The position numbers were made by a program, and so were the translations under genes. A DNA stretch of 64,000 nt, taken from NCBI GenBank assembly GCA_030697645.1, contig JAUYPI010000008.1:4301-68300 (forward strand), in the 5' to 3' direction. Of the stretch, positions 27,781 through 49,986 are shown piece after piece (the first letter of the stretch is position 1; every line of letters begins with the position of its first letter). The notes under the pieces are model-generated. The model had not been told where the DNA came from. It saw only the letters and a list, made by a program, of their open reading frames with translations, and searched no databases. This DNA is from a bacterium (GTDB lineage Bacteria > Patescibacteriota > Minisyncoccia > Phycocordibacterales > VMGT01).

Positions 27781-29142
27781 ATGGCTACTCTTAAAAAAAT
27801 ATCCAAAAGGAAACTGCCCTCCCGCAGCGGTGCGAGTCGTTTTTTGCGCTCCTCTGCGGTACGGACGCTTCCGAAAGGGAATGTGGGCAGGGGGCGTGTT
27901 CCACCTCGAAGCAGCGCGTTTGGTCGTGCCCGGGGTAGCGTGACGAGTGGAGCGCGTGCTGTGGCAGCGTCGAGCCGCGCTGTGCGCCTCGAGCCATCGC
28001 GTGCGGCGCGTCCGCTAGTGAGGGCAGGGCAGCGCCGCACCACTACGCCGCGCGCGGCGCAGCGGGTGCTCGACCGCGAGGAGAGAGCGGAGCGGCTTAT
28101 AGCGAAGGGTCGGGAGCGCGGGTTCATCGTATACGATGAGATTTTGAAGGAGTTTCCGAATATCGAGACCGACGTCATCTTTCTCGATGAGCTCTACGAG
28201 CGGCTCGCTGCGGCGAGGGTTGACGTGCTCGAGGGCGGTGCCATGCTCTCCGGGGAAGAGGAGGAGCCGCTTCCGGCAACGAAGCGCGGCCGACTTGGCG
28301 GCGAGCGTGGGTATGATTCGATCCAGATGTACCTCAAGGAAATCGGCCAGTACCCGCTGCTCTCGGGGCAGGAGGAGAAGGATCTCGCCAAGCGCGTCGC
28401 GTCGGGGGAGGAGGAAGCGAAGAATCTCCTCGCGCGCGCGAACCTGCGGCTCGTGGTCTCGATCGCAAAAAAGTACGTCGGCCGGAGCGCCGACCTCACA
28501 CTCCTCGATCTCATCCAGGAGGGGAACCTCGGGCTCTTCAAAGCGGTGGAGAAGTTTGACTGGACCAAGGGGTACAAGTTTTCAACCTACGCGACGTGGT
28601 GGATCCGACAGGCGATCACCCGCGCGCTCGCCGACCAGTCGCGCACCATTCGCATTCCGGTCCACATGGTGGAGACCATAGCGAAGTACAAGCAGGTCGT
28701 GCGCCGCCTTGCGCAGGACTTGGGGCGCGATCCGATGAGCGAGGAGGTAGCGCTCGAGATGGGACTCGATGTTGAAAAAATCCGCCAGATTGAGCAGATT
28801 GATCAGAGCACGGTCTCGCTCGAGAGCCCAGTCGGGGACGACGGCGACGATAAGGCCTCGACGCTCGGCGATTTCATCGCGGACGACAAGATTCTCTCGC
28901 CGGATCAAGAGGTCTCGCGCCGGATTCTTGCGGATCAGATAAGGGATATTTTAGGCGAGCTCTCGGAGAAGGAGCGGCGGATCCTTGAGATGCGCCAAGG
29001 GCTCGACGACGGCATCACGCATACGCTCGAGGAAGTGGGGAGGGAATTCGGCGTCACGCGCGAGCGCATTCGCCAGATCGAAGCCAAGGCGCACGAAAAA
29101 ATCCGCTTGCATGAGAAGGCGGAACGGTTGAGAAATTATTGA
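27781..29142 (+). CDS. rpoD: RNA polymerase sigma-70 factor RpoD
   Basis: Region 1.2 to 4.2 signatures ([66 protein letters not shown]). Follows dnaG, as in the conserved macromolecular-synthesis operon. Confidence 0.9.
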
Positions 29143-29176
29143 CGAGAGAGTAGAGAGTAGAAAGTGGAGAGTAGGC
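29143..29176. repeat. GAGAGAGTAGAGAGTAGAAAGTGGAGAGTAGG motif (copy 2)
   Basis: Shares GAGAGAGTAGAAAGTGGAG with 8905-8940. Both copies directly follow a stop codon. Confidence 0.5.
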
Positions 29177-29190
29177 CGCCCGTGTAGTAC

Positions 29191-29949
29191 GTGCATGGCA
29201 CAAAGTGCACGGTGCGTGGTACGAGACGAGGACGGCTGTGCATAGCGGTAAGACAAACGGATTATTTTTTGTACGATATACCGGTTGACCTATTACGACA
29301 CTCTTGTTATCATTATGTCGTGGGGGCCATTCCAGAAAACAAAACCGCTCTGCTCAAGAAGCTGTACTACGAAAAGAAATTCAGTGCTCGAAAGATTGCA
29401 GAGTCTTTCGGCGTATCTTTGGATGCCGTATATTACTTTATGCGGCATCATAAGCTTGCGCGGCGTAGTTTTTCTGAGGAGAATAGATTACGATTCCTGC
29501 GCAAACAGCCATCGTTTACTCTTGCGAGGGGACTATCGAAACGAGAAAGACAACTGAAACTCATCGGGGTCATGCTCTATTGGTGTGAGGGGTATAAAAC
29601 GGGCAAGAGCTCTACCGTTGACTTTGTGAATAGTGACCCGTCGATGGTAAAAATCTTTACTGAGTTTTTAAGAACAGTGTGTGGTATCAATGAGAACAAA
29701 CTGCGCGCGTATCTCTATTACTATTCGAACCAAGACGCCCGTGAGCTTATAAAATTTTGGAGCGCAGTGACGCGCATTCCCCCGAGTCAATTCACCAGGC
29801 CATACATGAGAGAAAGCCTTCATGTCACCCCAAAGCACAAAATGCCCCATGGTCTTGTGCATATCCGCTATTGTGATAAGAAATTATTGCTTCAAATCAT
29901 GGAGTGGATTGAGCAGTATAAGATGGCACAAGAGAGTTTGCGTCGGTAG
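29191..29949 (+). CDS. hypothetical HTH-containing protein in a low-GC patch (possibly homing-endonuclease-like or a mobile-element remnant)
   Basis: Much lower GC than neighbours. A predicted helix-turn-helix (KKFSARKIAESFGVSLDAVYYF). The 3' end overlaps the tRNA-Tyr-like sequence. The start is uncertain (next Met is at residue 84). Confidence 0.3.
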   Translation: MHGTKCTVRGTRRGRLCIAVRQTDYFLYDIPVDLLRHSCYHYVVGAIPENKTALLKKLYYEKKFSARKIAESFGVSLDAVYYFMRHHKLARRSFSEENRLRFLRKQPSFTLARGLSKRERQLKLIGVMLYWCEGYKTGKSSTVDFVNSDPSMVKIFTEFLRTVCGINENKLRAYLYYYSNQDARELIKFWSAVTRIPPSQFTRPYMRESLHVTPKHKMPHGLVHIRYCDKKLLLQIMEWIEQYKMAQESLRR

Positions 29950-30027
29950 TCCCGTAGGGGGCGGGAGCGGACTGTAAATCCGTCGTCTTCAATGGCCCCG
30001 TGAGTTCGACTCTCACCCGACGCACCA
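29940..30027 (+). tRNA. tRNA-Tyr(GUA)-like, with a long variable arm and encoded CCA. The 5' third is non-canonical.
   Basis: Anticodon loop CUGUAAA in GCGGA-CTGTAAA-TCCGT. Perfect T-arm GTGAG-TTCGACT-CTCAC. Acceptor GCGTCGG/CCGACGC + A + CCA. The D-arm only folds as CCCG-TAGGGGG-CGGG with two extra nucleotides after the acceptor stem. Confidence 0.45.
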
Positions 30028-30133
30028 CGTAGTGTTAAGGTCGGCTCGAACTACATTTAATTTTGGGGGAAGAAGTTTTTTAATCATATAAGTTGGGGGT
30101 CGAATTAGTTACAAAGAAGACGATTTTAAAACT

Positions 30134-30811
30134 ATGAAGAAATATTTTCCTACATTATTTTTTGGAGCTTACTGGATTTTTCTTGGTGTTTTAATTTCAC
30201 AGAATGTGGGTTGGGATATGCCGGATAGCAGTCCTGGTGCCTTCTTTATAAAACCCCAGGTTAACTTCATTACGAATATAGTTGAGGACCTGCTTCCCGG
30301 GAGAGGCTTCGTACCAGGAAGATTTTATCCAAGCATGTTCGGGTGGCTCATATCGGCAATTTTCCTTACAGGCGCAATGGCATTTGTAAACATCATTGCA
30401 ATAGTTGTATTGCGTTCACCGAAAGAATATAAGCCGACAATAATTAACGCGATATATCTTCTTGTCGGCGCATTTCTTCCTGCGGATATCACTATTTATA
30501 AAATATTGAGAGCCATTCCCTTGCATGCGGGATACGGAGGACAATGGGGAATTCAAGCGTGTGGGGGGTTTGTTTGTTTTCCGCCACCTACTACTGGCGC
30601 TTGGGCAATTATTGGAGCTGTGGCCATAGGGATAGTTTTTGCTCTAAATCATTTCTCTGTTTCCTTAATAAATTCTGGTAGCACGACTCTAGGAAAAATA
30701 ATACGGAGAACTTTAATGTTCCTGCCCGTGTGGATTTTATTAATAGCAATTTTCGTAACTATTTTTCCGCAAATCCATAAACAACCGCTACCACCGTCAA
30801 TCAACTTATAA
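30134..30811 (+). CDS. hypothetical polytopic membrane protein (AT-rich, likely horizontally acquired)
   Basis: 225 aa with six or more hydrophobic helices. GC is far below the window average. It lies immediately downstream of the tRNA-Tyr-like sequence. Confidence 0.5.
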   Translation: MKKYFPTLFFGAYWIFLGVLISQNVGWDMPDSSPGAFFIKPQVNFITNIVEDLLPGRGFVPGRFYPSMFGWLISAIFLTGAMAFVNIIAIVVLRSPKEYKPTIINAIYLLVGAFLPADITIYKILRAIPLHAGYGGQWGIQACGGFVCFPPPTTGAWAIIGAVAIGIVFALNHFSVSLINSGSTTLGKIIRRTLMFLPVWILLIAIFVTIFPQIHKQPLPPSINL

Positions 30812-31078
30812 AAGGTGAATTCTTTTCACAAAAAAGTTTCTGTATTCAAAATTGTAAAGAACTTTGCCGCCAAAGAAAAACTTGCTTGTCCGCCGTAGCT
30901 CATGATAGCGAAGGCGGGAAATTGTCAGCGGTGCGGCTCCGCCGCTTTTCCGGATTTTCGTCCTCCTTCGCCTTTCGACTTCGGACGGGCAAGCGGGGAG
31001 ACTTCCTCGCCGCCGCAGGCGGCGAAATGCGTTCGAACTATTTTAAGAATGGGCACCAAGCAGTTTTGGTTCGCCTCG

Positions 31079-31816
31079 CTACTGCACCGATGCTTCCGTT
31101 TCGCTTCCCGCCTGCGGCACGTTTTGGAGAATGCTCTCGATGAGAGATCGAATGGAGCTGTAGGGCTGGGCACCTTCGAGGGGGAGCTGGTTACCGGCGA
31201 CGAGTACGACAGTGTGCGGGGTACCCGTGGCGCCGGCGCGCTCGGCATCCGCAACCATCGCCTCGACTTTCTTAGCATATTTGCCGCTCTTGAGGCAGCG
31301 CTCGAATTCGGCACGGTCGAGGCCGATATCTGCAGCGATTGTTGCGAGGAGTGCGGGGTCGAGTTTGTTGTCCGAGGGAGTGATAGTAAAGATGCGGTCG
31401 AGGTAGAGCCAGAATCCGCTGTTTCCCCCGAGCTCCGCCGCGCACTCCGTGGCCTCGGCTTCCTTGGGGGACTTGCTGTGGACCGCCGCGAGCGGAAAGT
31501 GGCGGTACACCCAGGCAACCGCGCCCATCTTCCCGTACTCATCCATGATGCGGTGGAGCGTGGCGTGATAGTTCTTGCAGAACGGGCATTCGGTATCCGA
31601 ATACTCAATGAGAATGATCGGCGCCTGCGGGTTCCCCAGAATATGGTCGTCGCCCGAAATCGGCGCAGCACCCTGCTGCTTTGGTGCTGTGGCGGACTCG
31701 CCGACATTCTCTACCACCGCCGCAGGACGAGAGGCTTTGTTCGAGAAGAAAACCGCGCCGCCGATAAAAACTCCGGCGAGAATAATGGCGGTGGGAATGG
31801 TGAGGGAGCGGGGCAT
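31079..31816 (-). CDS. dsbA: DsbA-family thiol:disulfide oxidoreductase with signal anchor
   Basis: CPFC active site (SDTECPFCKNYH) and an N-terminal TM/signal segment MPRSLTIPTAIILAGVFIGGAVFF. The plus-strand ORF 30902-31840 overlapping it is rejected. Confidence 0.8.
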   Translation of the reverse strand: MPRSLTIPTAIILAGVFIGGAVFFSNKASRPAAVVENVGESATAPKQQGAAPISGDDHILGNPQAPIILIEYSDTECPFCKNYHATLHRIMDEYGKMGAVAWVYRHFPLAAVHSKSPKEAEATECAAELGGNSGFWLYLDRIFTITPSDNKLDPALLATIAADIGLDRAEFERCLKSGKYAKKVEAMVADAERAGATGTPHTVVLVAGNQLPLEGAQPYSSIRSLIESILQNVPQAGSETEASVQ

Positions 31817-31825
31817 GGGAGAACG

Positions 31826-31903
31826 ACATTTGACATGTAACCTTTGACATTTGACGTCGCGTCGCCGGTCGTTCGAAGTCAAATGTCAATGGTCAAATGT
31901 TTA
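31826..31903. repeat. CATTTGACA-word palindromic element (family D) with GACGTCGCGTCGCC core
   Basis: CGACATTTGACATGTAACCTTTGACATTTGACGTCGCGTCGCCGGTCGTTCGAAGTCAAATGTCAATGGTCAAATGTT, between rpsU and dsbA. Confidence 0.8.
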
Positions 31904-42190: not shown

Positions 42191-42267
42191 ATAGTGCTAT
42201 CTCGCATTCCGAACCGCAGTCTTGATGTGCTATAGTACAAGCGCGCATGCATGCGCGCTTTCTATTT

Positions 42268-42341
42268 TGCCGGGTCGTCTAAAGGTAGGACAATTGCCTC
42301 TGGAGCAATTTATCTTGGTTCGAGTCCAAGCCCGGCAGCCA
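42268..42341 (+). tRNA. tRNA-Gln(CUG)
   Basis: Cloverleaf: acceptor TGCCGGG/CCCGGCA, D-arm GTC-TAAAGGTAG-GAC, anticodon arm ATTGC-CTCTGGA-GCAAT (anticodon CUG), T-arm CTTGG-TTCGAGT-CCAAG, discriminator G, then CCA. Confidence 0.75.
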
Positions 42342-42351
42342 GTGTGGAGAA

Positions 42352-42373
42352 GCGGCGGCGAGAGCCGCTTTTT
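42352..42373 (+). terminator. terminator hairpin GCGGC-ggcgaga-GCCGC + TTTTT after tRNA-Gln
   Basis: GC stem followed by T5. Confidence 0.6.
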
Positions 42374-42789
42374 GGCTTGCTATAGAGCCAGATTTTGTAG
42401 GTTCGAACCATGGCTGTTGGGCCTAAACCGCGATACGTGACTCTTTACTGAGGCAATGCACATATAGGATTTTTTTGAAAAATAGCGGTTCGAAAGCGTA
42501 GAGACGGTGGTAGACGAGAAACCATTGACTTAGGTGTGCGGTTATGTATACTAGAACGAGGTTAACAACTACATATGGTGTATCCAGAGTACGGAGATGC
42601 GAAGGGTAATGGCCCAATGCTCCGTCCGCAACCTGTTCGCCGAGTGGCGAAAAAGGTGCGAACTCCATCCTTCAGACTTCCTGTTTGAAGGAAAGATACG
42701 TTCTAAAATTGGATGTCTGGATACACCGCCTTCGTGGGCGGTGTATTTGTTTGGTAGAAGGTCCTTGACAATACTATAAGGAACAACGC

Positions 42790-44208
42790 ATGGTACAAAA
42801 ACATAGTACGGCCGAACCAAGCATCCTTCAGTTGCTTGGAATCGTTGGATACGACTCAGTTGAGTCGGTAGTCATCGCCGCGCTCGCGACGGAAGCTCCG
42901 CTGCTCATTATCGGCCCACACGGGACTGCAAAATCATTGCTGCTGAATTTGCTCGCGGAGGCACTTCGTCTTGAACATCGCCATTATAATGCAGCGATGA
43001 TCAATTTCGACGACCTCATCGGGTTTCCGTATCCGAACGAAAGCAAGACTGGCCTTGAGTATATACCAACGAAAGGCTCTATATGGGGAGTAGAGTCTGT
43101 GTTTATTGACGAAATATCACGCACTCGCGTTGATATGCAAAACCGGCTGTTCCCAATCATCCACGAGAAGATGATCCAAGGCATTCCGCTTTCGGGTCTT
43201 CGTTTCAGATGGGCGGCCATGAACCCTCCACGAAAGGACGAGGAAGAAGAGCGCGGGTGGACGTACGAAGGCTCGGAGCCACTTGATGTGGCGTTGGCGG
43301 ACCGATTTCCGTTTATTCTTTCACTTCCGTCTTTTGCAGCGTTTTCCGAGAGCCACAAGCTCGCGGTCATTCGCGGCCAGCCGGAAGTGGAAGCTGCAAA
43401 AGTTGGCACTCTGCTCTCTCAGCGAATTAACCTCGCGAGAGTTGCGGCAGGGGAAGTAAGGAAAACTTTGAGCGAGAGTATCGGCTCCTATGTCCTTGCC
43501 ATTCATGCGCTTCTTGAAAAGATGAAACGGCCAATATCACCGAGACGCGCCCGCATGCTCCACGATGCCATTGTTGGGGTTATCGCGGCGGAATCGGTTG
43601 CCGGTCGCCACGATTCAAAGTCCGCGACATTCATGGCGCTTACGAACGCCTTACCGCATCCCGCGTACGGCGAGGTTATAGATGCGTTAGAATTACTCAC
43701 GGCCCATAACCAGGCGTGGAAATTAGCCGAAATTCCTGCAACGGATCCAAGGCGACTCATCTTTGCCGAACCCAATCCGGTGAAGCGGGTGGCGTTGGGA
43801 TTATCACTCTCGATTCCGGATTTGGATATGTCGATCCTAGTGCAGGACGCGTACGCCTCGCTTGAGGCAGTTGAGCGCATCTGCTTTGGGGTTGCGCTCT
43901 ATCCTATAGTGAGTACCACGAAAAATCTGACAGCCGTTGCGTTCGAGGCTCTAGCCGACGAATGGTTCGAGGTTGAGAATCAATCGGCGCGCAGACATCA
44001 AGTGGCGAGCGGGTCGAAACGGCATCGGCAGTGGCAAAAACTGGTCGATTGGATCAGTGAGCAGACGACGAACACCTTAGAAGAAAGTGTGAAAGTTAAT
44101 ATCGCACTTGTCCTCTTTGAGCGGGAAGTCGAGTTTGAACCGGAAATCGTCGCACTGACCTTCAACAAGTTTAACGAGTTATTCCCCTGGAGAAAGGAAA
44201 ACGTATGA
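42790..44208 (+). CDS. MoxR-like AAA+ ATPase with C-terminal extension
   Basis: Walker A LLIIGPHGTAKS, Walker B VFIDEISR, sensor and arginine-finger region. Lower GC than the core genome. The stop overlaps the next start (ATGA). Confidence 0.8.
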   Translation: MVQKHSTAEPSILQLLGIVGYDSVESVVIAALATEAPLLIIGPHGTAKSLLLNLLAEALRLEHRHYNAAMINFDDLIGFPYPNESKTGLEYIPTKGSIWGVESVFIDEISRTRVDMQNRLFPIIHEKMIQGIPLSGLRFRWAAMNPPRKDEEEERGWTYEGSEPLDVALADRFPFILSLPSFAAFSESHKLAVIRGQPEVEAAKVGTLLSQRINLARVAAGEVRKTLSESIGSYVLAIHALLEKMKRPISPRRARMLHDAIVGVIAAESVAGRHDSKSATFMALTNALPHPAYGEVIDALELLTAHNQAWKLAEIPATDPRRLIFAEPNPVKRVALGLSLSIPDLDMSILVQDAYASLEAVERICFGVALYPIVSTTKNLTAVAFEALADEWFEVENQSARRHQVASGSKRHRQWQKLVDWISEQTTNTLEESVKVNIALVLFEREVEFEPEIVALTFNKFNELFPWRKENV

Positions 44209-44711
44209 GAGAAATCGCCCGTGCGCTGCACAACATGAGCTCATCTTCACGCTCAACCGCGTATGTCAAACCGCGTCGAGTCGAATCACCCCCGACTCTG
44301 GCCCATGGAGCAAGCGTAAGAAGTAATAGAGGTGTGACGATCTCGCTCCGCACGTCCGCTGATGAAGAGAGTTTTCTCAAAGGGCTTCATGACGAGATTC
44401 TCTTAGGCGCACTATGCACGACCATTGAGGAGGATTTGAGAGACATTGCCAACAGGACTGTTATCGAACACGGCCTCATTGGTTGCGTTCTGGTGCATCT
44501 TTACTCTGGCACATTGAGTAAAGCGACCTCATTGAGGTCATTAACGTGCCCCAAACTGAAACTAGCTCTCTTATCGAAAAGTTCAGATCGTTTGTTTGTG
44601 GCATCAAAAACGCCAAATCTTTCGATCAGCTTGCTTTACCGAGAGCTGGTTACCTTCGATTCACGGATCGTAGCGCTACAGGAGAAACTACATGAAGAGA
44701 CCGGAGCATAA
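44205..44711 (+). CDS. hypothetical protein (middle gene of the MoxR/vWA operon)
   Basis: 168 aa, translationally coupled at both ends. No recognisable domain. Confidence 0.45.
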   Translation: MREIARALHNMSSSSRSTAYVKPRRVESPPTLAHGASVRSNRGVTISLRTSADEESFLKGLHDEILLGALCTTIEEDLRDIANRTVIEHGLIGCVLVHLYSGTLSKATSLRSLTCPKLKLALLSKSSDRLFVASKTPNLSISLLYRELVTFDSRIVALQEKLHEETGA

Positions 44712-46140
44712 CGAGGATGCCGGGAATGCGCTCCGCGGACGCATTCTTGCGGCTTTCCCGGCAGGTCACTACGCGCTTGACGCATTCTTTCGCCTCACTG
44801 ACATCGTTGTCACAGACCGCGTGGATACGGCAGCGGTAGAGTGTGTTGCGGCACCACGGATGCTCGTCAATGGGCAGTTCGTCTCAAAACACTGCGCCAC
44901 CGATGAACACCTCTTCATGCTTATCCTGCATGAACTTCACCACGTGCTCATGGGGCATACCACTCTGTTCAAGCGAACAACAGTGCTCGATAACATCGCT
45001 TTTGACGCTGTGATAAATGCAATTCTCTCACAGCTCTTCAGAGAACCGATGTACTACTCGTTCTTCCAAAAGCTGTACAAGCCGGACAGATTACCGGATG
45101 CACTGCTTCGGCCGCCCGACGGTTGGCCGAAGGAATGGGACATCCCGATGAGTCTTCCGAAACCCGTATCAGAAATGATCCGAGTACTCTATTCGGAGGC
45201 AAGCGGTACCTACAAGGAGGTCTACGACCTCTTCAAGAAAGACACCGCGCTCAAAGAACACCTTGCCGGTGCAGGCATACCGCTTGACGGGAGAGGCCAA
45301 GATGGAACGTTGGGTACGGGGGGCGATGCTCAGTGCCCTCTTTTAGGGGATCATTCTCCTGAAGGAATAGTTGGACGAGGCGAGTCGGCCGCGAACAGCC
45401 CGGCCCTGGAGGGGGCTGTCCGCTCAATCGTTGAGAAGTGGCCAATGCCGCCGGATCCCATACGCGGCAGAAGCTCTGGCAGAGAACTCAGGGAGATCCT
45501 GCTTGAGAAGGTGAAAACTCCGCCTACGGCACAGAGGATCCTGGAGCGACTCATCAGGAAGATGGTTGAAGAGGGCCCTGCCGGCGGCGTGACGCGATAT
45601 ACGCTTCAAGACGTGGATCGAACGATCGAGCATCCCCTGCCGACACTACGCGATCGGCGGGCGCTTGTGGCCGCCAGTTTCGGCTGGCAACCGCTCGTGT
45701 ATCGAACCTCACTTGAAATAAGACGGCGACGTAAGGAACGAGGTATCACGTCGGTCTACGTTGATGTAAGTGGGAGCGTGGCTCGGTATCGATCACTTAT
45801 GGCTTCTCTTGTGAAGCCGTATGTTCTGAGAAAACGTGCTCGGCTCTTCGTATTCAGCGAAGTGGTGGATGCGGTCACCCCCGACGCGCTCAAGCGCGGC
45901 ATATACAAAACAACGGACGGCACGGATGCTGTCTGTATTTGGAAACACGCGAGTGAAAATGGCTTCAGAAAGATTGTCGTGCTCACTGACGGGTATGTCG
46001 GCAAGCCACCTCGGTATTGGTCTCATGAGCTATCAAAGAACGGCGTTCGAATATGTGTGGCGCTGGTCGCTGACGGCTATATGTGTGATCTTGAAGACAT
46101 TGCCGATGAGATCATAGAGTTACCACTGGAGTTAACCTGA
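44692..46140 (+). CDS. putative metallopeptidase (HExxH) domain fused to a vWA domain (DUF2201-like vWA partner of MoxR)
   Basis: N-terminal HELHHVLMGH zinc-binding motif. C-terminal von Willebrand A domain with MIDAS DVSGSV ... TDG. Confidence 0.75.
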   Translation: MKRPEHNEDAGNALRGRILAAFPAGHYALDAFFRLTDIVVTDRVDTAAVECVAAPRMLVNGQFVSKHCATDEHLFMLILHELHHVLMGHTTLFKRTTVLDNIAFDAVINAILSQLFREPMYYSFFQKLYKPDRLPDALLRPPDGWPKEWDIPMSLPKPVSEMIRVLYSEASGTYKEVYDLFKKDTALKEHLAGAGIPLDGRGQDGTLGTGGDAQCPLLGDHSPEGIVGRGESAANSPALEGAVRSIVEKWPMPPDPIRGRSSGRELREILLEKVKTPPTAQRILERLIRKMVEEGPAGGVTRYTLQDVDRTIEHPLPTLRDRRALVAASFGWQPLVYRTSLEIRRRRKERGITSVYVDVSGSVARYRSLMASLVKPYVLRKRARLFVFSEVVDAVTPDALKRGIYKTTDGTDAVCIWKHASENGFRKIVVLTDGYVGKPPRYWSHELSKNGVRICVALVADGYMCDLEDIADEIIELPLELT

Positions 46141-46196
46141 GAAGCAGAAGGTGAGACATTCGCTCGCGCATGCTTCACCCATAGAGAGGAAGAAGA

Positions 46197-47366
46197 ATGA
46201 AAACGTATGGAGAATGGGTATTCCCTGGGCATCCCGATAAGCTGTCCGACCGCATAGCGGATTCGATTGTTGATGAGGCGCTCATCGACGACCCCGATGC
46301 GCTCGTCGGTATCGAAGTTGCTGTACACCGAAATAAGGTCTTCATCGATGGTCGAATCGCGTGTCCACATGCAGAGACATTCGACTGTTCCGAGATTGCG
46401 CGAAGGGTATTTCGCGAAAGCGGGTACAGTTCGGTATTTCTGCCTGATCCCACAAGACTCTCGATAGACACCGATCTGTGCGTTGGTGACTTTCGTGAAG
46501 ATGAACGGCGCATTCGCTCTATCTCCGACGATCAAAACATCGTCACGGGATATGCGGAACTAAATCCGGACACCAACTTTCTCCCGATCGCGCACTTTGT
46601 CGCTTATACAATCGCGCGAGAGTTTTGTGATCAGAGGAAGGAAAACATCCGGATCGGTCCTGACGGCAAGGTACTTGTAGTGATTGAAAGTGAAGGGCGG
46701 TCATCTGGAGTGCGGACAGAGTATCGTCTCGAGGCGGTGAGTTTTTCGGTTCACCATCAGTCCGAACTCAACACTATAGAGATCGTGAAAACCGCCAAGC
46801 AGGTTCTTGAATGTGCTATGGTTAAACTCCCTTCGGTACACACCAGGTGGAACGGCGGAAGCGGGAAGACGGAGGTTATTGTCAACGGCGCAGGAGACTT
46901 TGCGGTTGGCGGACCTGAAGGAGATAACGGTCTTGCCGGCAAGAAGCTTGTCGTAGATGCATACGGGCCGCACATTCCGATTGGGGGAGGAGCACTATCC
47001 GGTAAAGATCCCCACAAGATCGATCGGGCGATGGCGCTTCGTGCCAGGCAAATTGCAAAGCATATCGTCATCTCCGGAGTCGCCGAGCGTGCCTTGGTCT
47101 GGCTCGCGTTCGTGCCAGGTGAGCGGGAACCACGGTGGAAGAACATCACGCTTTTTAAGGAGGGTGCCGACGGATCGGCGCGAATGTGGCCAATGGATGC
47201 GGTGCTGTCTCGTCGATGGCTGGCCGGCTATGATCTGACCATCGAGGGTACCTTTCGAGACTTGCGCTTAGACGCGGTATGGTGGTCTGAATTTGCCGCG
47301 TGGGGACACTTCACAAACCCCAATGCTTCATGGGAGAGGTGGTTTCCGGGGAGAACCTCGGTGTAG
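46197..47366 (+). CDS. divergent S-adenosylmethionine synthetase (MetK)-like protein
   Basis: Full-length collinearity with MetK: GHPDKLSDRIADSIVDEAL (MetK GHPDKIADQISDAVLDAIL), GAGDFAVGGPEGDNGLAGKKLVVDAYG (MetK [25 protein letters not shown]), GGGALSGKDPHKIDRAMALRARQIAKHIV (MetK [29 protein letters not shown]). The GAGDQG loop is replaced by SDDQNIV. Confidence 0.7.
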   Translation: MKTYGEWVFPGHPDKLSDRIADSIVDEALIDDPDALVGIEVAVHRNKVFIDGRIACPHAETFDCSEIARRVFRESGYSSVFLPDPTRLSIDTDLCVGDFREDERRIRSISDDQNIVTGYAELNPDTNFLPIAHFVAYTIAREFCDQRKENIRIGPDGKVLVVIESEGRSSGVRTEYRLEAVSFSVHHQSELNTIEIVKTAKQVLECAMVKLPSVHTRWNGGSGKTEVIVNGAGDFAVGGPEGDNGLAGKKLVVDAYGPHIPIGGGALSGKDPHKIDRAMALRARQIAKHIVISGVAERALVWLAFVPGEREPRWKNITLFKEGADGSARMWPMDAVLSRRWLAGYDLTIEGTFRDLRLDAVWWSEFAAWGHFTNPNASWERWFPGRTSV

Positions 47367-47604
47367 TCTCCACAGGTGGCCTCACAGAGCAGATGCACTG
47401 GTAAAAATCCGTGCTCACTGCGGCCACGAATCGCCGAGAAAAATAAGATAGTTCTTTATTACCTCGAGTTCGGAGAGTTCCTGCTTTAAACTCTCCTCTG
47501 TTTCGGGGTGCGTATCTCGACTGATGAGCCACAATAACGAAACAGGAAATGTGTTTTTGGGCAAACCGGCTCTATACGAGCTCCTAGGAAGAGACAGGTG
47601 ACAT

Positions 47605-47979
47605 ATGAGTGTGGAACGACGAGGCAAACCTATGTTTCGAGTGGAAAAATTCCTTCCGAACGAGTGTCCGAAATGTAGGCATCATTTTCTGAAGGAAGGA
47701 GAAGACTATGTCCGATTATTTGGAGACATCATAGACGGTCGTAAGATTCTGCGGGAAACAACGGGGTACGACATTATCATCTGTGATAAGTGCAAGAATT
47801 GTACTGCCCGGGTGATGATCGAAGCATACCACGTTTCCGATCGAACCAAAGCGGAGGCTCTCTTCCGAGAAGGATTTATCAATCTGCAACCGGTTGAATC
47901 TTTCGGGAGTCATATTGAGGATGCGCACGAAATTTTTACCGAGATACCGGGGCTTCGAGTGAGGTCTCTGAAACTCTAA
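47605..47979 (+). CDS. hypothetical zinc-ribbon protein
   Basis: CPKC ... CDKCKNC pairs. No other recognisable domain. The start is uncertain (alternative Met at 47632). Confidence 0.45.
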   Translation: MSVERRGKPMFRVEKFLPNECPKCRHHFLKEGEDYVRLFGDIIDGRKILRETTGYDIIICDKCKNCTARVMIEAYHVSDRTKAEALFREGFINLQPVESFGSHIEDAHEIFTEIPGLRVRSLKL

Positions 47980-48179
47980 AGAGTTCGCGCCATTCAGTCA
48001 CAAAAGGTCGTAAAATCTCAAAGCGCCTGACCAGCGCTTTTTTCTTTTTTGACCTCTCACTATAAACAAAAATTGTACATGCAGGTTAGACGTTATTTTC
48101 CATGCTCAATAGCTCCTCCAACTGCTCCATAGTATACTGCGGATATACAATGATTTTTCATTAATCTCGGTCAATAACT

Positions 48180-48524
48180 ATGGGCTCATTACGAACTCCG
48201 GAAGGAAAGGAGAGGTACGAGGAATATTTGTCTCTTGCCGATCTATCGGCCTGCCCGCTTTGTGGGAAGGAGTCGATAGAGACTTTCCAGTTTTGGAAGG
48301 TTACTGAAAATTCTTTCCCGTACGATCTGATTGCCAAGGTGCACCATATGCTGGTGCCAAAACGGCATGCTGTTGAAAACGAGCTGACGCCGGAGGAGTT
48401 GGGTGAGTTGGCAGTGATTAAGGAATCGTTCGTGCACCAGCACTACGAATGGATAGTTGAACCGACGCACCCTAGTAAATCAATCCCGAGCCACTTCCAT
48501 CTCCACCTCATTGTGGGGAAATAG
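48180..48524 (+). CDS. HIT-family (histidine triad) protein
   Basis: Histidine triad HFHLHLI near the C-terminus and an N-terminal CPLC. 114 aa. Confidence 0.6.
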   Translation: MGSLRTPEGKERYEEYLSLADLSACPLCGKESIETFQFWKVTENSFPYDLIAKVHHMLVPKRHAVENELTPEELGELAVIKESFVHQHYEWIVEPTHPSKSIPSHFHLHLIVGK

Positions 48525-49347
48525 CTCCATTAGAATTTTCCGCGACCTCGCGCAGGCGAGGGAGGGTCTATTTTGGTTACGTTTCCGTCTCATTCCCCCC
48601 GTTTTTTATACACCAATGCAGATGGAAAAGAAGCTTGACTCTCATCATAACAACAGCAAACCAGCGCTCGGAGCGAAGCGCTGGTTTCGTTTGGGGAAAA
48701 GGCTCACGCCGGAAATTGCCTCTATTCTATAGGCAGCTTCCACTTATACGGCGTCATGCGACGCAACCATACATTGAGCTTTTATAGCCTCCCCGGTATC
48801 TTTTATATCTTTGTAAGCACACTCCAGCCGCACGCAGTACCACTGCCACATCAGGTAGAGTATCAGACTCCCATATTCTAAAGAAAGCGGCTCGGGAACA
48901 GAAACGCTGCCAGTGCGTACACCATACCTCTTCGTGCGATGCGGCAAAATAGGACTGCTCCAACAGCTCAACAAATAGATGCCAAGAGGCACGCTTGTGG
49001 GCGTCAAAGAAAAAATGTGCCCGAGATTTCACCAAAGTTTCCACCTCTCTGTCTTCAGGAATGACAATCCACCTCAGCGAAAATTCCTGCACCACCCTTC
49101 TGCCACGGACGTAAAAAACTACAGGCAGTACTGCGGGCAATACCGGGTATCGCTCCGCTACGCAACGGCAGATACCAAATCTCAATTCCCGTATCGATCC
49201 CATGACACACCTCTAGGTAAGCGAGACCCCATGGAACAATATCGGTTATTCTCTAAAATGAGACTAGCACATATGCATGGCGCTGGAAAGCGTTTGAGGT
49301 TAAGGGTGTCTTTTGTCAGGAAATTTTCGTGGTACCATAATGACTGT

Positions 49348-49986
49348 ATGAAAAAGACGCCTCTGGCTCTTGGTACTTTTGCTTTTGTTCTGCTTTTCAT
49401 AATCGGCTCTATTTTTTCTCTCCTGTGGTTCTTTAAACCTGGGCCGGAAATCCGCAATTATCCTTCGGCAGGGAAAGATATTATTGCATTTGGGGACAGT
49501 TTGGTGGAAGGGATCGGCTCGACCGCGGGCGGGGGTTTTGTACCTATTCTCTCGGAACGGATCGGGCGCAGGATTGTGAATCTCGGCCGCTCCGGGGACA
49601 CAACGGCTTCCGGTCTTGCTCGTGTGGAGGAAATTTTCCGCTACGACCCTCAAGTGGTCATACTCGTTCTCGGTGGCAATGACTTTTTGCGGAAAATAGC
49701 CCAAGAGACCACGTTCGCCAACCTTGAGCGCATCATAGAGCGTGTCCAGGAAAAGGGCGCCATAGTGTTATTGCTCGGTGTTAAGGGCACGCTTCTCGGC
49801 GATAAGGCGGAGTCATATTTCAAGGAACTCTCGGAGCGTCGAGGCACTGCGTATGTGCCCAATATTCTAGACGGTATTTTTGGGAAGCCGGGTTTGATGT
49901 ATGACAGCATTCATCCGAATGATGCGGGCTATACGCGTATCGCGGACAGACTATACCCGGAACTTAAAAAACTTATAGATAGTTGA
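49348..49986 (+). CDS. SGNH/GDSL-family hydrolase with N-terminal TM anchor
   Basis: Block I AFGDSL, block III GGND, block V DSIHPND. Confidence 0.75.
   Translation: MKKTPLALGTFAFVLLFIIGSIFSLLWFFKPGPEIRNYPSAGKDIIAFGDSLVEGIGSTAGGGFVPILSERIGRRIVNLGRSGDTTASGLARVEEIFRYDPQVVILVLGGNDFLRKIAQETTFANLERIIERVQEKGAIVLLLGVKGTLLGDKAESYFKELSERRGTAYVPNILDGIFGKPGLMYDSIHPNDAGYTRIADRLYPELKKLIDS

Follow-up and report, generated by a model that had tools for sequence, protein, structure and literature searches.

Our analysis suggests that a four-gene operon in a 64,000-nt stretch of a Patescibacteriota genome (positions 4,301 to 68,300 of contig JAUYPI010000008.1, assembly GCA_030697645.1; hereafter the window) would be transcribed when S-adenosylmethionine (SAM) is scarce. 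On the + strand the operon encodes, in order, a MoxR-type AAA+ ATPase of 472 amino acids (42790-44208); a small conserved protein of 168 amino acids that falls outside known families (44205-44711); a protein of 482 amino acids that combines a zincin-like DUF2201_N domain (HELHHVLMGH) with a vWA domain bearing a metal-ion-dependent adhesion site (MIDAS; DVSGS...TDG) (44692-46140); and, as the last core gene, a paralogue of the SAM synthetase MetK of 389 amino acids (46197-47366). A SAM-I (S-box) riboswitch aptamer (42577-42702) precedes the first gene on the same strand, in a region that an initial annotation of the window had treated as plain intergenic DNA. We consider it reasonably probable that this is a SAM-starvation operon, in which the MoxR/vWA pair matures or reactivates the MetK paralogue in the way that CbbQO serves Rubisco and NorQD serves NO reductase. 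The open reading frames (ORFs) that the initial annotation listed for the block are all present, as are the 4-nt ATGA overlap of the MoxR and small genes and the 20-nt overlap of the small and vWA genes; the MetK-like gene does follow the vWA gene, but after 56 nt rather than 57 bp.

The aptamer was identified by a covariance-model match to Rfam RF00162 that spans the full model (1-108) and scores 46.9 bits against a gathering score of 44.4, with an E-value of 1.9e-8 for a search of 9 kb and 9.7e-10 for a search of 451 nt. The alignment contains helices P1-P4 and the conserved AUC.AGAG, GCAACC and AAGGUGC.AA elements, and the aptamers at the same position in homologous operons, which score 57-71 bits, support it. 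Hairpin folding places an intrinsic terminator immediately downstream (42720-42752, + strand), with a GC-rich 12-bp stem (GAUACACCGCCU/GGGCGGUGUAUU), a UCGU loop and a UGUUU tail; its fold has a free energy of −25.6 kcal/mol (z −3.9), and none of 200 shuffled sequences was as stable. When the whole leader is folded to minimum free energy, GGUGUAUCCAGA, the 5′ strand of P1 (42577-42588), pairs with the 5′ arm of the terminator (UCUGGAUACACC), a predicted pairing that is the classic antiterminator alternative; folding yields, 3′ of P1, a terminator helix and an antiterminator helix that exclude each other, as expected of a riboswitch expression platform. The leader is a predicted SAM-responsive transcription attenuator of a translationally coupled operon: with SAM bound, the P1 helix would form and the terminator would halt transcription; with SAM scarce, the P1 5′ strand would pair with the terminator 5′ arm, and the antiterminator would permit read-through into the MoxR, small, zincin-vWA and MetK-like genes and perhaps into a zinc-ribbon gene that follows them. 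A promoter-like site (TTGACT-16 nt-TATACT, 42525-42552, + strand, 10 of 12 consensus positions) lies 25 nt 5′ of the riboswitch; it is a consensus match only, and such sites are no commoner in this region than in shuffled sequence.

The four genes travel together well beyond the window. Six homologues of the MetK-like protein (44-60% identical) all stand in the order MoxR, small protein, a protein of about 460 amino acids, MetK-like protein, in genomic neighbourhoods that are unrelated to one another. A profile of the vWA protein, by which the genome loci were located, detected related proteins in 481 of the 185,579 species-representative genomes; almost all of these are metagenome-assembled genomes (MAGs), and the taxa include Burkholderiales and other Proteobacteria, Verrucomicrobiota/Opitutae, Planctomycetota, Acidobacteriota, Gemmatimonadota, Chloroflexota, Myxococcota and Uhrbacteria; the cassette is spread over more than 8 phyla. 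Wherever the contig allows, the order MoxR-small-vWA-MetK-like on one strand is seen in 80 of the 80 genome loci fetched, and 4-nt overlaps are common at the gene junctions. The reverse test, on metagenome contigs located with a profile of the MetK-like protein, showed that, where there is room for it, the vWA gene immediately precedes the MetK-like gene (about 67 of 70 loci); in two related exceptions only a vWA remnant is left. The view of the MoxR, small, zincin-vWA and MetK-like genes as one coupled unit, put forward in the initial annotation, is thus upheld by a linkage that is essentially invariant across phyla.

The same linkage bears on a second idea of that annotation, namely that the MetK-like gene is simply a divergent housekeeping metK, and the MoxR and vWA genes its unrelated neighbours from a tRNA-linked insertion. 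It is true that the 64-kb window encodes no other MetK, that a tRNA-Gln gene lies upstream and that composition shifts modestly in the block. However, some 150 loci from many phyla hold the four genes as a linked set whose stop and start codons overlap and whose first gene is preceded by a shared riboswitch; there is neither an integrase nor a direct repeat; and the reading is contradicted elsewhere because some genomes, among the other carriers that also hold a canonical metK, have it beside the cassette. We consider this explanation highly improbable: its metabolic part comes nearer the truth, but its treatment of MoxR/vWA as unrelated context does not hold.

Two observations on the collection of loci (numbered L001 onwards) may be recorded here. 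A second, more distant MoxR and vWA pair occurs near the cassette in L049 (17927-20336), L057 (11394-12653), L078 (542-2892) and L086 (2-1924). Near-identical cassette contigs (L071, L079 and L082) are filed under three "cleanbin" isolates, named as an unnamed bacterium, Parabacteroides distasonis and Bacteroides caccae, and look like a shared contaminant or mis-binned contig.

Control by SAM is a recurrent property of the cassette. Rfam scans detected SAM aptamers at or above the gathering score, on the cassette strand and ahead of MoxR, in 28 of 49 related loci, and these belong to the SAM-I, SAM-I/IV and SAM-II (SAM_alpha) classes. Two covariance models were built from these hits and searched against about 1.5 Mb of loci, where nearly all matches lie on the cassette strand upstream of MoxR. 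When redundant loci are set aside and 500 nt or more of DNA is required ahead of MoxR (12 loci were too short), a SAM riboswitch precedes MoxR in 60 of 85, mostly 100-700 nt before it; relatives from the Patescibacteria, or candidate phyla radiation (CPR), are among the loci with a riboswitch (L001 and L002). Two structurally unrelated aptamer folds stand over the same gene set in different phyla, and the operon therefore belongs to the SAM/methionine regulon; such a pattern argues for selection for SAM control.

Some of these leaders have features of their own. Tandem SAM aptamers precede MoxR in eight loci (L067, L021, L015, L157, L122, L165, L144 and L073), which suggests a sharper, more digital response to SAM. 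In about a dozen loci of Burkholderiales type, among them L016, L030, L032, L037, L045, L077, L085, L129, L136 and L162, a DUF3293 (PF11697) gene for a protein of about 143 amino acids lies between a SAM-I/IV riboswitch and MoxR, followed in several by a second small ORF. One DUF3293 member has a weak match to S-AdoMet_lyase (E 0.005); a PDB sequence search with DUF3293 returned nothing relevant, and a literature search found no paper that mentions the family. The 804,601-bp chromosome of a Burkholderiaceae bacterium (OZ248540.1, L064) retains the cassette with its SAM-I/IV riboswitch, and its presence in a chromosome of only 0.8 Mb speaks for a function that a reduced genome has reason to retain.

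The enzyme of the cassette is related to, and distinct from, canonical MetK. The window protein contains the three MetK Pfam domains, is 35% identical to solved MetK structures and scores 207.5 bits against TIGR01034, below the equivalog cut-off of 309.4; with a profile of its own family, the paralogues score about 390-540 bits and canonical MetKs about 290-354 (342 for E. coli MetK). The initial annotation rightly described the protein as a divergent MetK, but the GAGDQG loop that it considered lost is changed to SDDQ, with the Asp and the Gln retained. In E. coli numbering, H14, D16, K17, E42, D118, D163, K165, F230, D238, K245, K265, K269 and D271 are invariant, and Q119 and S186 are also kept in the family; the residues that are kept are the contacts to ATP, triphosphate, metal and adenine. 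The full set of ATP, triphosphate and metal ligands is in place, and the features that mark the methionine site of canonical MetK (GAGDQG, Glu55 and Gln98) are altered or missing. Judged from these residues, the MetK-like protein is most likely an active adenosyltransferase with a rewired methionine pocket and substrate gate.

The product of the first gene matches AAA_5 with 30.3 bits (cut-off 22) and bpMoxR with 27.0 bits (cut-off 27), and has a Walker A motif GPHGTAKS and a Walker B motif FIDEIS; the AAA_5 match and the two motifs bear out its assignment as a MoxR-type AAA+ ATPase. Its score with the MoxR family profile is 560, a member of that family is the first gene of the cassette in every case, and it is paired with a vWA/MIDAS protein in the same operon, as proteins of the MoxR class are. 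In the family of the third protein, 42 of 50 members match PF13203 (DUF2201_N, a putative metallopeptidase), 38 match VWA_CoxE and 3 match DUF2201, mostly below the Pfam gathering scores, and the source of one member names it a "predicted metal-dependent peptidase". Structural matches of the vWA protein include the solved vWA domains of NorD and BchD, and its N-terminal domain has no structural match in the PDB. Other proteins with DUF2201_N and vWA domains that carry that same name share the two-domain layout, whereas the proteins described here form a distinct subfamily that is strictly linked to the small protein and the MetK-like gene.

The small protein has no match in Pfam, NCBIfam or PADLOC; profile searches of the operon proteins thus returned the AAA_5 and DUF2201_N/vWA families that the initial annotation had in mind, but no family for the middle one. 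Its core comprises about 145 amino acids, a homologue occupies the second position in nearly every locus, and the conserved motifs are HNMSxPP[KR]S at the N-terminus and L[ST]KS[ST]xxVW[LV]RxKxPxL at the C-terminus. A homologue search gave 4 matches only, and the AlphaFold model made from them (mean predicted local distance difference test score, pLDDT, 36.6) was unusable. The idea that the Met of the HNMS motif is an adenosylation target, as a peptidyl-methionine, was weakened by 3 of 29 sequences, which have Tyr, Leu or Ser at this position.

These components can be arranged in a mechanism by analogy. The MetK-like enzyme would supply SAM under SAM starvation; the vWA protein would hold a MoxR hexamer in place through its MIDAS site, and the small protein would be an adaptor or a substrate; and the MoxR/vWA machine would serve as a dedicated assembly or reactivation factor, through gate opening, product release or metal loading, while the HExxH domain may process the small protein. 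CbbQ/CbbO acts on Rubisco and NorQ/NorD on nitric oxide reductase, and the operon is like these two systems and CoxD/CoxE in that a MoxR AAA+ protein and a vWA protein with an intact MIDAS share an operon with one conserved metabolic enzyme. It differs from all three in that this enzyme is a SAM-synthetase paralogue, that the vWA protein bears an N-terminal zincin-like DUF2201_N domain, that a fourth, small conserved protein is obligatory and that the unit is under the control of a SAM riboswitch. The operon likewise resembles canonical metK under an S-box, as in Bacillus, in the three-domain fold, the conserved ATP, triphosphate and Mg residues and the SAM-I attenuation, whereas the paralogue invariably closes a MoxR/vWA operon and coexists with a true metK in several genomes. 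A further likeness, as analogy only, is to the human methionine adenosyltransferase (MAT) pair MATα2-MATβ, where the function of the gating loop depends on a partner protein: gating-loop mutants of MATα2 lose activity and regain it on binding MATβ (PMC6850014). The partner here would instead be an ATP-driven AAA+/vWA machine unrelated to MATβ.

To our knowledge, bacterial SAM synthesis is regarded as a one-enzyme step without helper proteins; the operon suggests that, in some bacteria, an energy-driven accessory machine may make or sustain SAM when it is low. The carriers include minimal-genome CPR organisms and abundant freshwater and marine lineages. If the proposed mechanism is correct, MetK-like proteins would be a new class of client for MoxR/vWA chaperones, and a function would be found for the genes downstream of many metagenomic SAM-I/IV riboswitches. 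Full-text searches of the literature returned nothing relevant on MoxR/vWA with MetK or with SAM riboswitches, nor on DUF2201 with MoxR, and MoxR is not mentioned in the 2010 paper on SAM-I/IV or in the first 200 of its 438 supplementary files; the combination of a MetK paralogue and MoxR/vWA helpers under a SAM riboswitch seems to be undescribed, in its client as in its regulation. A bolder version, to which we give little credence, is that the cassette provides a riboswitch-gated, chaperone-dependent route to SAM or a SAM-like sulfonium, in which the paralogue uses a substrate other than free L-methionine or cannot turn over unaided. If true, the enzyme would be the first chaperone-dependent adenosyltransferase, powered by an ATP-driven MoxR/vWA/zincin machine, and this hitherto unrecognized route would be common among uncultured aquatic bacteria and among CPR bacteria, whose genomes are very small.

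Several points weigh against a SAM-starvation operon with the MetK paralogue as the client. In distinction from CbbQO, NorQD and CoxDE, the MetK-like protein is connected to MoxR/vWA as a presumed client through operon logic and analogy only, and neither CbbQO nor NorQD has anything that corresponds to the conserved HExxH domain or to the small protein. The window aptamer exceeds the Rfam threshold by only 2.5 bits, and no riboswitch was detected in 25 of the 85 loci, including Opitutae loci that have metK upstream. The patchy distribution and the lower GC content at third codon positions (GC3) fit a horizontally moving accessory module; together with the variable neighbourhoods, they indicate that the cassette moves horizontally, which is compatible with an accessory metabolic module. 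Finally, E55, the counterpart of human E70, which binds the α-amino group of methionine, is an invariant Arg in the paralogue, the gating loop is 7 residues shorter, and Q98 is gone; from these differences, the substrate of the paralogue might not be free L-methionine. In the human enzyme, Glu70 hydrogen-bonds the methionine α-amino group and Gln113, which corresponds to Q98, contacts the methionine carboxylate (PMC6850014).

The altered pocket raises the alternative that the MetK-like enzyme transfers the adenosyl group to a different sulfur or selenium compound (a keto- or desamino-methionine analogue, say, or peptide-bound methionine) in a salvage route to SAM or to another sulfonium product; the operon would still be SAM-regulated and would still need MoxR/vWA. 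Besides the Arg in place of the Glu, the lost Gln and the shorter gating loop, the change from GAGDQG to SDDQ and the TIGR01034 score below the equivalog cut-off are in keeping with such a substrate, and the coexistence of canonical MetK in several genomes means that the paralogue need not duplicate its function. However, SAM as the product would be the simplest reason for control by a SAM riboswitch; of the two ligands of the α-amino group, the second, Asp238, is retained; the new Arg could take over carboxylate binding from the lost Gln98; and the human Q113A mutant retains 75% of its activity (PMC6850014). We regard another substrate as unlikely, and favour SAM as the product of the paralogue.

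Canonical metK genes adjoin the cassette in at least two independent arrangements. A co-oriented metK with an intact GAGDQG loop lies downstream of the MetK-like gene in Planctomycetota (L023, 12595-13560; L046, 10508-11683) and in metagenome loci (L129, 6670-7806; L139, 9225-10397); in Opitutae it lies directly upstream of MoxR (L051, 6607-7743; L081, 6856-7959); and in a Polyangiaceae MAG (L012) it lies 6 kb from the cassette. Genomes with a canonical metK beside the cassette therefore hold both enzymes. A SAM riboswitch precedes MoxR in L023, L046 and L129, where the arrangement of the genes implies that one riboswitch may control both the cassette and the canonical metK; none was detected in L139.

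This adjacency invites the explanation that canonical MetK is the client of MoxR/vWA and that the paralogue is an adaptor or a hetero-oligomer partner, which would recruit damaged, inhibited or product-locked MetK for remodelling or proteolysis at low SAM. The active sites of MetK are located at dimer interfaces, which makes hetero-oligomers conceivable; metK is repeatedly co-transcribed with the cassette, upstream of it in Opitutae and downstream in Planctomycetota; and a conserved zincin domain is at hand. On the other hand, a canonical metK is adjacent in only about 8 loci and the paralogue is always present, and the paralogue has a complete set of catalytic residues, needless in a mere adaptor. 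We therefore judge this explanation quite unlikely, and retain the paralogue itself as the probable client.

The initial annotation had proposed an NTP-dependent conflict or defence module, and a MoxR-vWA conflict system with the MetK-like protein as its effector deserves consideration; in one variant, the riboswitch would sense the depletion of SAM by a phage SAM lyase, and the cassette would restore SAM or trigger a response. MoxR, a peptidase-fused vWA protein and a small third component match the ternary layout of known MoxR-vWA conflict systems (Kaur et al. 2020, PMC7159879; iSTAND variants, PMC12839542), the bpMoxR score is at the Pfam threshold, the phyletic distribution is patchy with variable neighbourhoods, GC3 is below that of flanking genes, and one locus stands beside phage-tail and GTA (gene transfer agent) genes. 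However, PADLOC recognized no system: seven of eight block proteins gave nothing, and MoxR gave only a 13.5-bit match to mad8 (E 0.0097). NCBIfam found no named family among the block proteins except MetK, below its cut-off. Among 140 flanking ORFs, drawn from about 60 loci and classified with Pfam, the commonest families were DUF3293, canonical MetK, sulfatase/FGE and MerR; defence genes were not enriched, and none was present in this set. In contrast to the ternary systems, we detected in the cassette neither a VMAP, β-propeller or iSTAND domain nor a variable effector domain, and the place of a variable effector module is taken by one highly conserved enzyme; MetK is not mentioned in the paper on those systems (PMC7159879). 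The cassette also differs from them in lying outside defence islands and under a SAM riboswitch, and such control and adjacency to metK are hallmarks of metabolism. We thus consider a defence function very unlikely, and the operon cautions that clusters of MoxR, vWA and a third gene are not all defence systems.

Carriage by phages was considered as well and was dropped, because a scan of 2.9 million viral contigs of IMG/VR with the vWA profile gave one locus; a search of a cultured-phage database with the MetK-like protein returned only ordinary phage MetKs, of 31-36% identity. In a marine Rhodospirillaceae lineage, the cassette adjoins GTA-holin and phage-tail genes (L008, 4962-10416), and the sole IMG/VR match (L090) appears to come from the same lineage, with riboswitch scores and spacing identical to those of L031 and L094. 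The context of L008 and L090 is probably a neighbouring GTA or prophage, and not a phage-borne cassette.

The framing of the block as a tRNA-linked island does not fare well. The GC content had been said to drop by about 10 points, but the measured drop is 4 points (0.513 vs. 0.555). The GC3 of block genes is 0.47-0.60, compared with 0.65-0.75 in the flanking housekeeping genes, i.e. 10-20 points lower; this difference is real but modest, and expression level could also account for it. None of the ORFs between 42.3 and 50 kb has a recombinase domain in a Pfam search, and a repeat search of the block found no direct repeat involving the tRNA, in agreement with the initial annotation on both counts; the block has neither an integrase beside the tRNA nor a repeat of the tRNA 3′ end at its far boundary, as tRNA-integrated islands would. 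The evidence for an island is weak, and consists solely of the modest shift in composition.

The block is embedded among housekeeping genes, with dnaG, rpoD, prfB, ftsEX and pyrG upstream and htrA and murJ downstream, and the tRNA-Gln(CTG) gene described at its edge was found at 42268-42341. The closest named relatives of the window are Candidatus Uhrbacteria, and a partial copy of the small protein is filed under Patescibacteria at NCBI. Downstream of the MetK-like gene, the zinc-ribbon gene (47605-47979, + strand) encodes a protein of 124 amino acids with a CxxC...CxxC motif and stands outside the core. Besides the window, two 80%-identical relatives (L171 and L172) have it in this position, and L001 has it upstream in the opposite orientation; apart from these closest CPR relatives, no locus has it. 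No + strand terminator is predicted between the MetK-like and zinc-ribbon genes, and a terminator-like hairpin followed by a T run (48020-48040, + strand) is the likely end of the transcription unit; the zinc-ribbon gene is possibly a clade-specific passenger of that unit, outside the conserved core. The HIT protein of the initial annotation is an ORF of 114 amino acids with the C-terminal histidine-triad motif HFHLHLI, as described, but without a significant Pfam match. The last ORF in the range, a GDSL lipase that had been left unnamed (48979-49986), and the HIT gene are common to no other locus and are therefore placed outside the unit.

A few minor observations concern other parts of the window. 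The 238-nt gap between the MetK-like and zinc-ribbon genes contains a weak Hammerhead_3 match (47495-47548; 22 bits against a gathering score of 48.5, E 0.59), most likely due to chance. A perfect 22-nt palindrome with a T-rich tail (AAGCGCGCATGCATGCGCGCTT, 42239-42260), flagged as terminator-like, occupies the gap between pyrG and tRNA-Gln. Directly after tRNA-Tyr (29940-30027), in the region 29000-31900, GC content falls to 0.42-0.485, and two ORFs there (30134-30811 and 30902-31840) have no Pfam match; this region may be a small insertion and, by composition, is a better island candidate than the flagged block.

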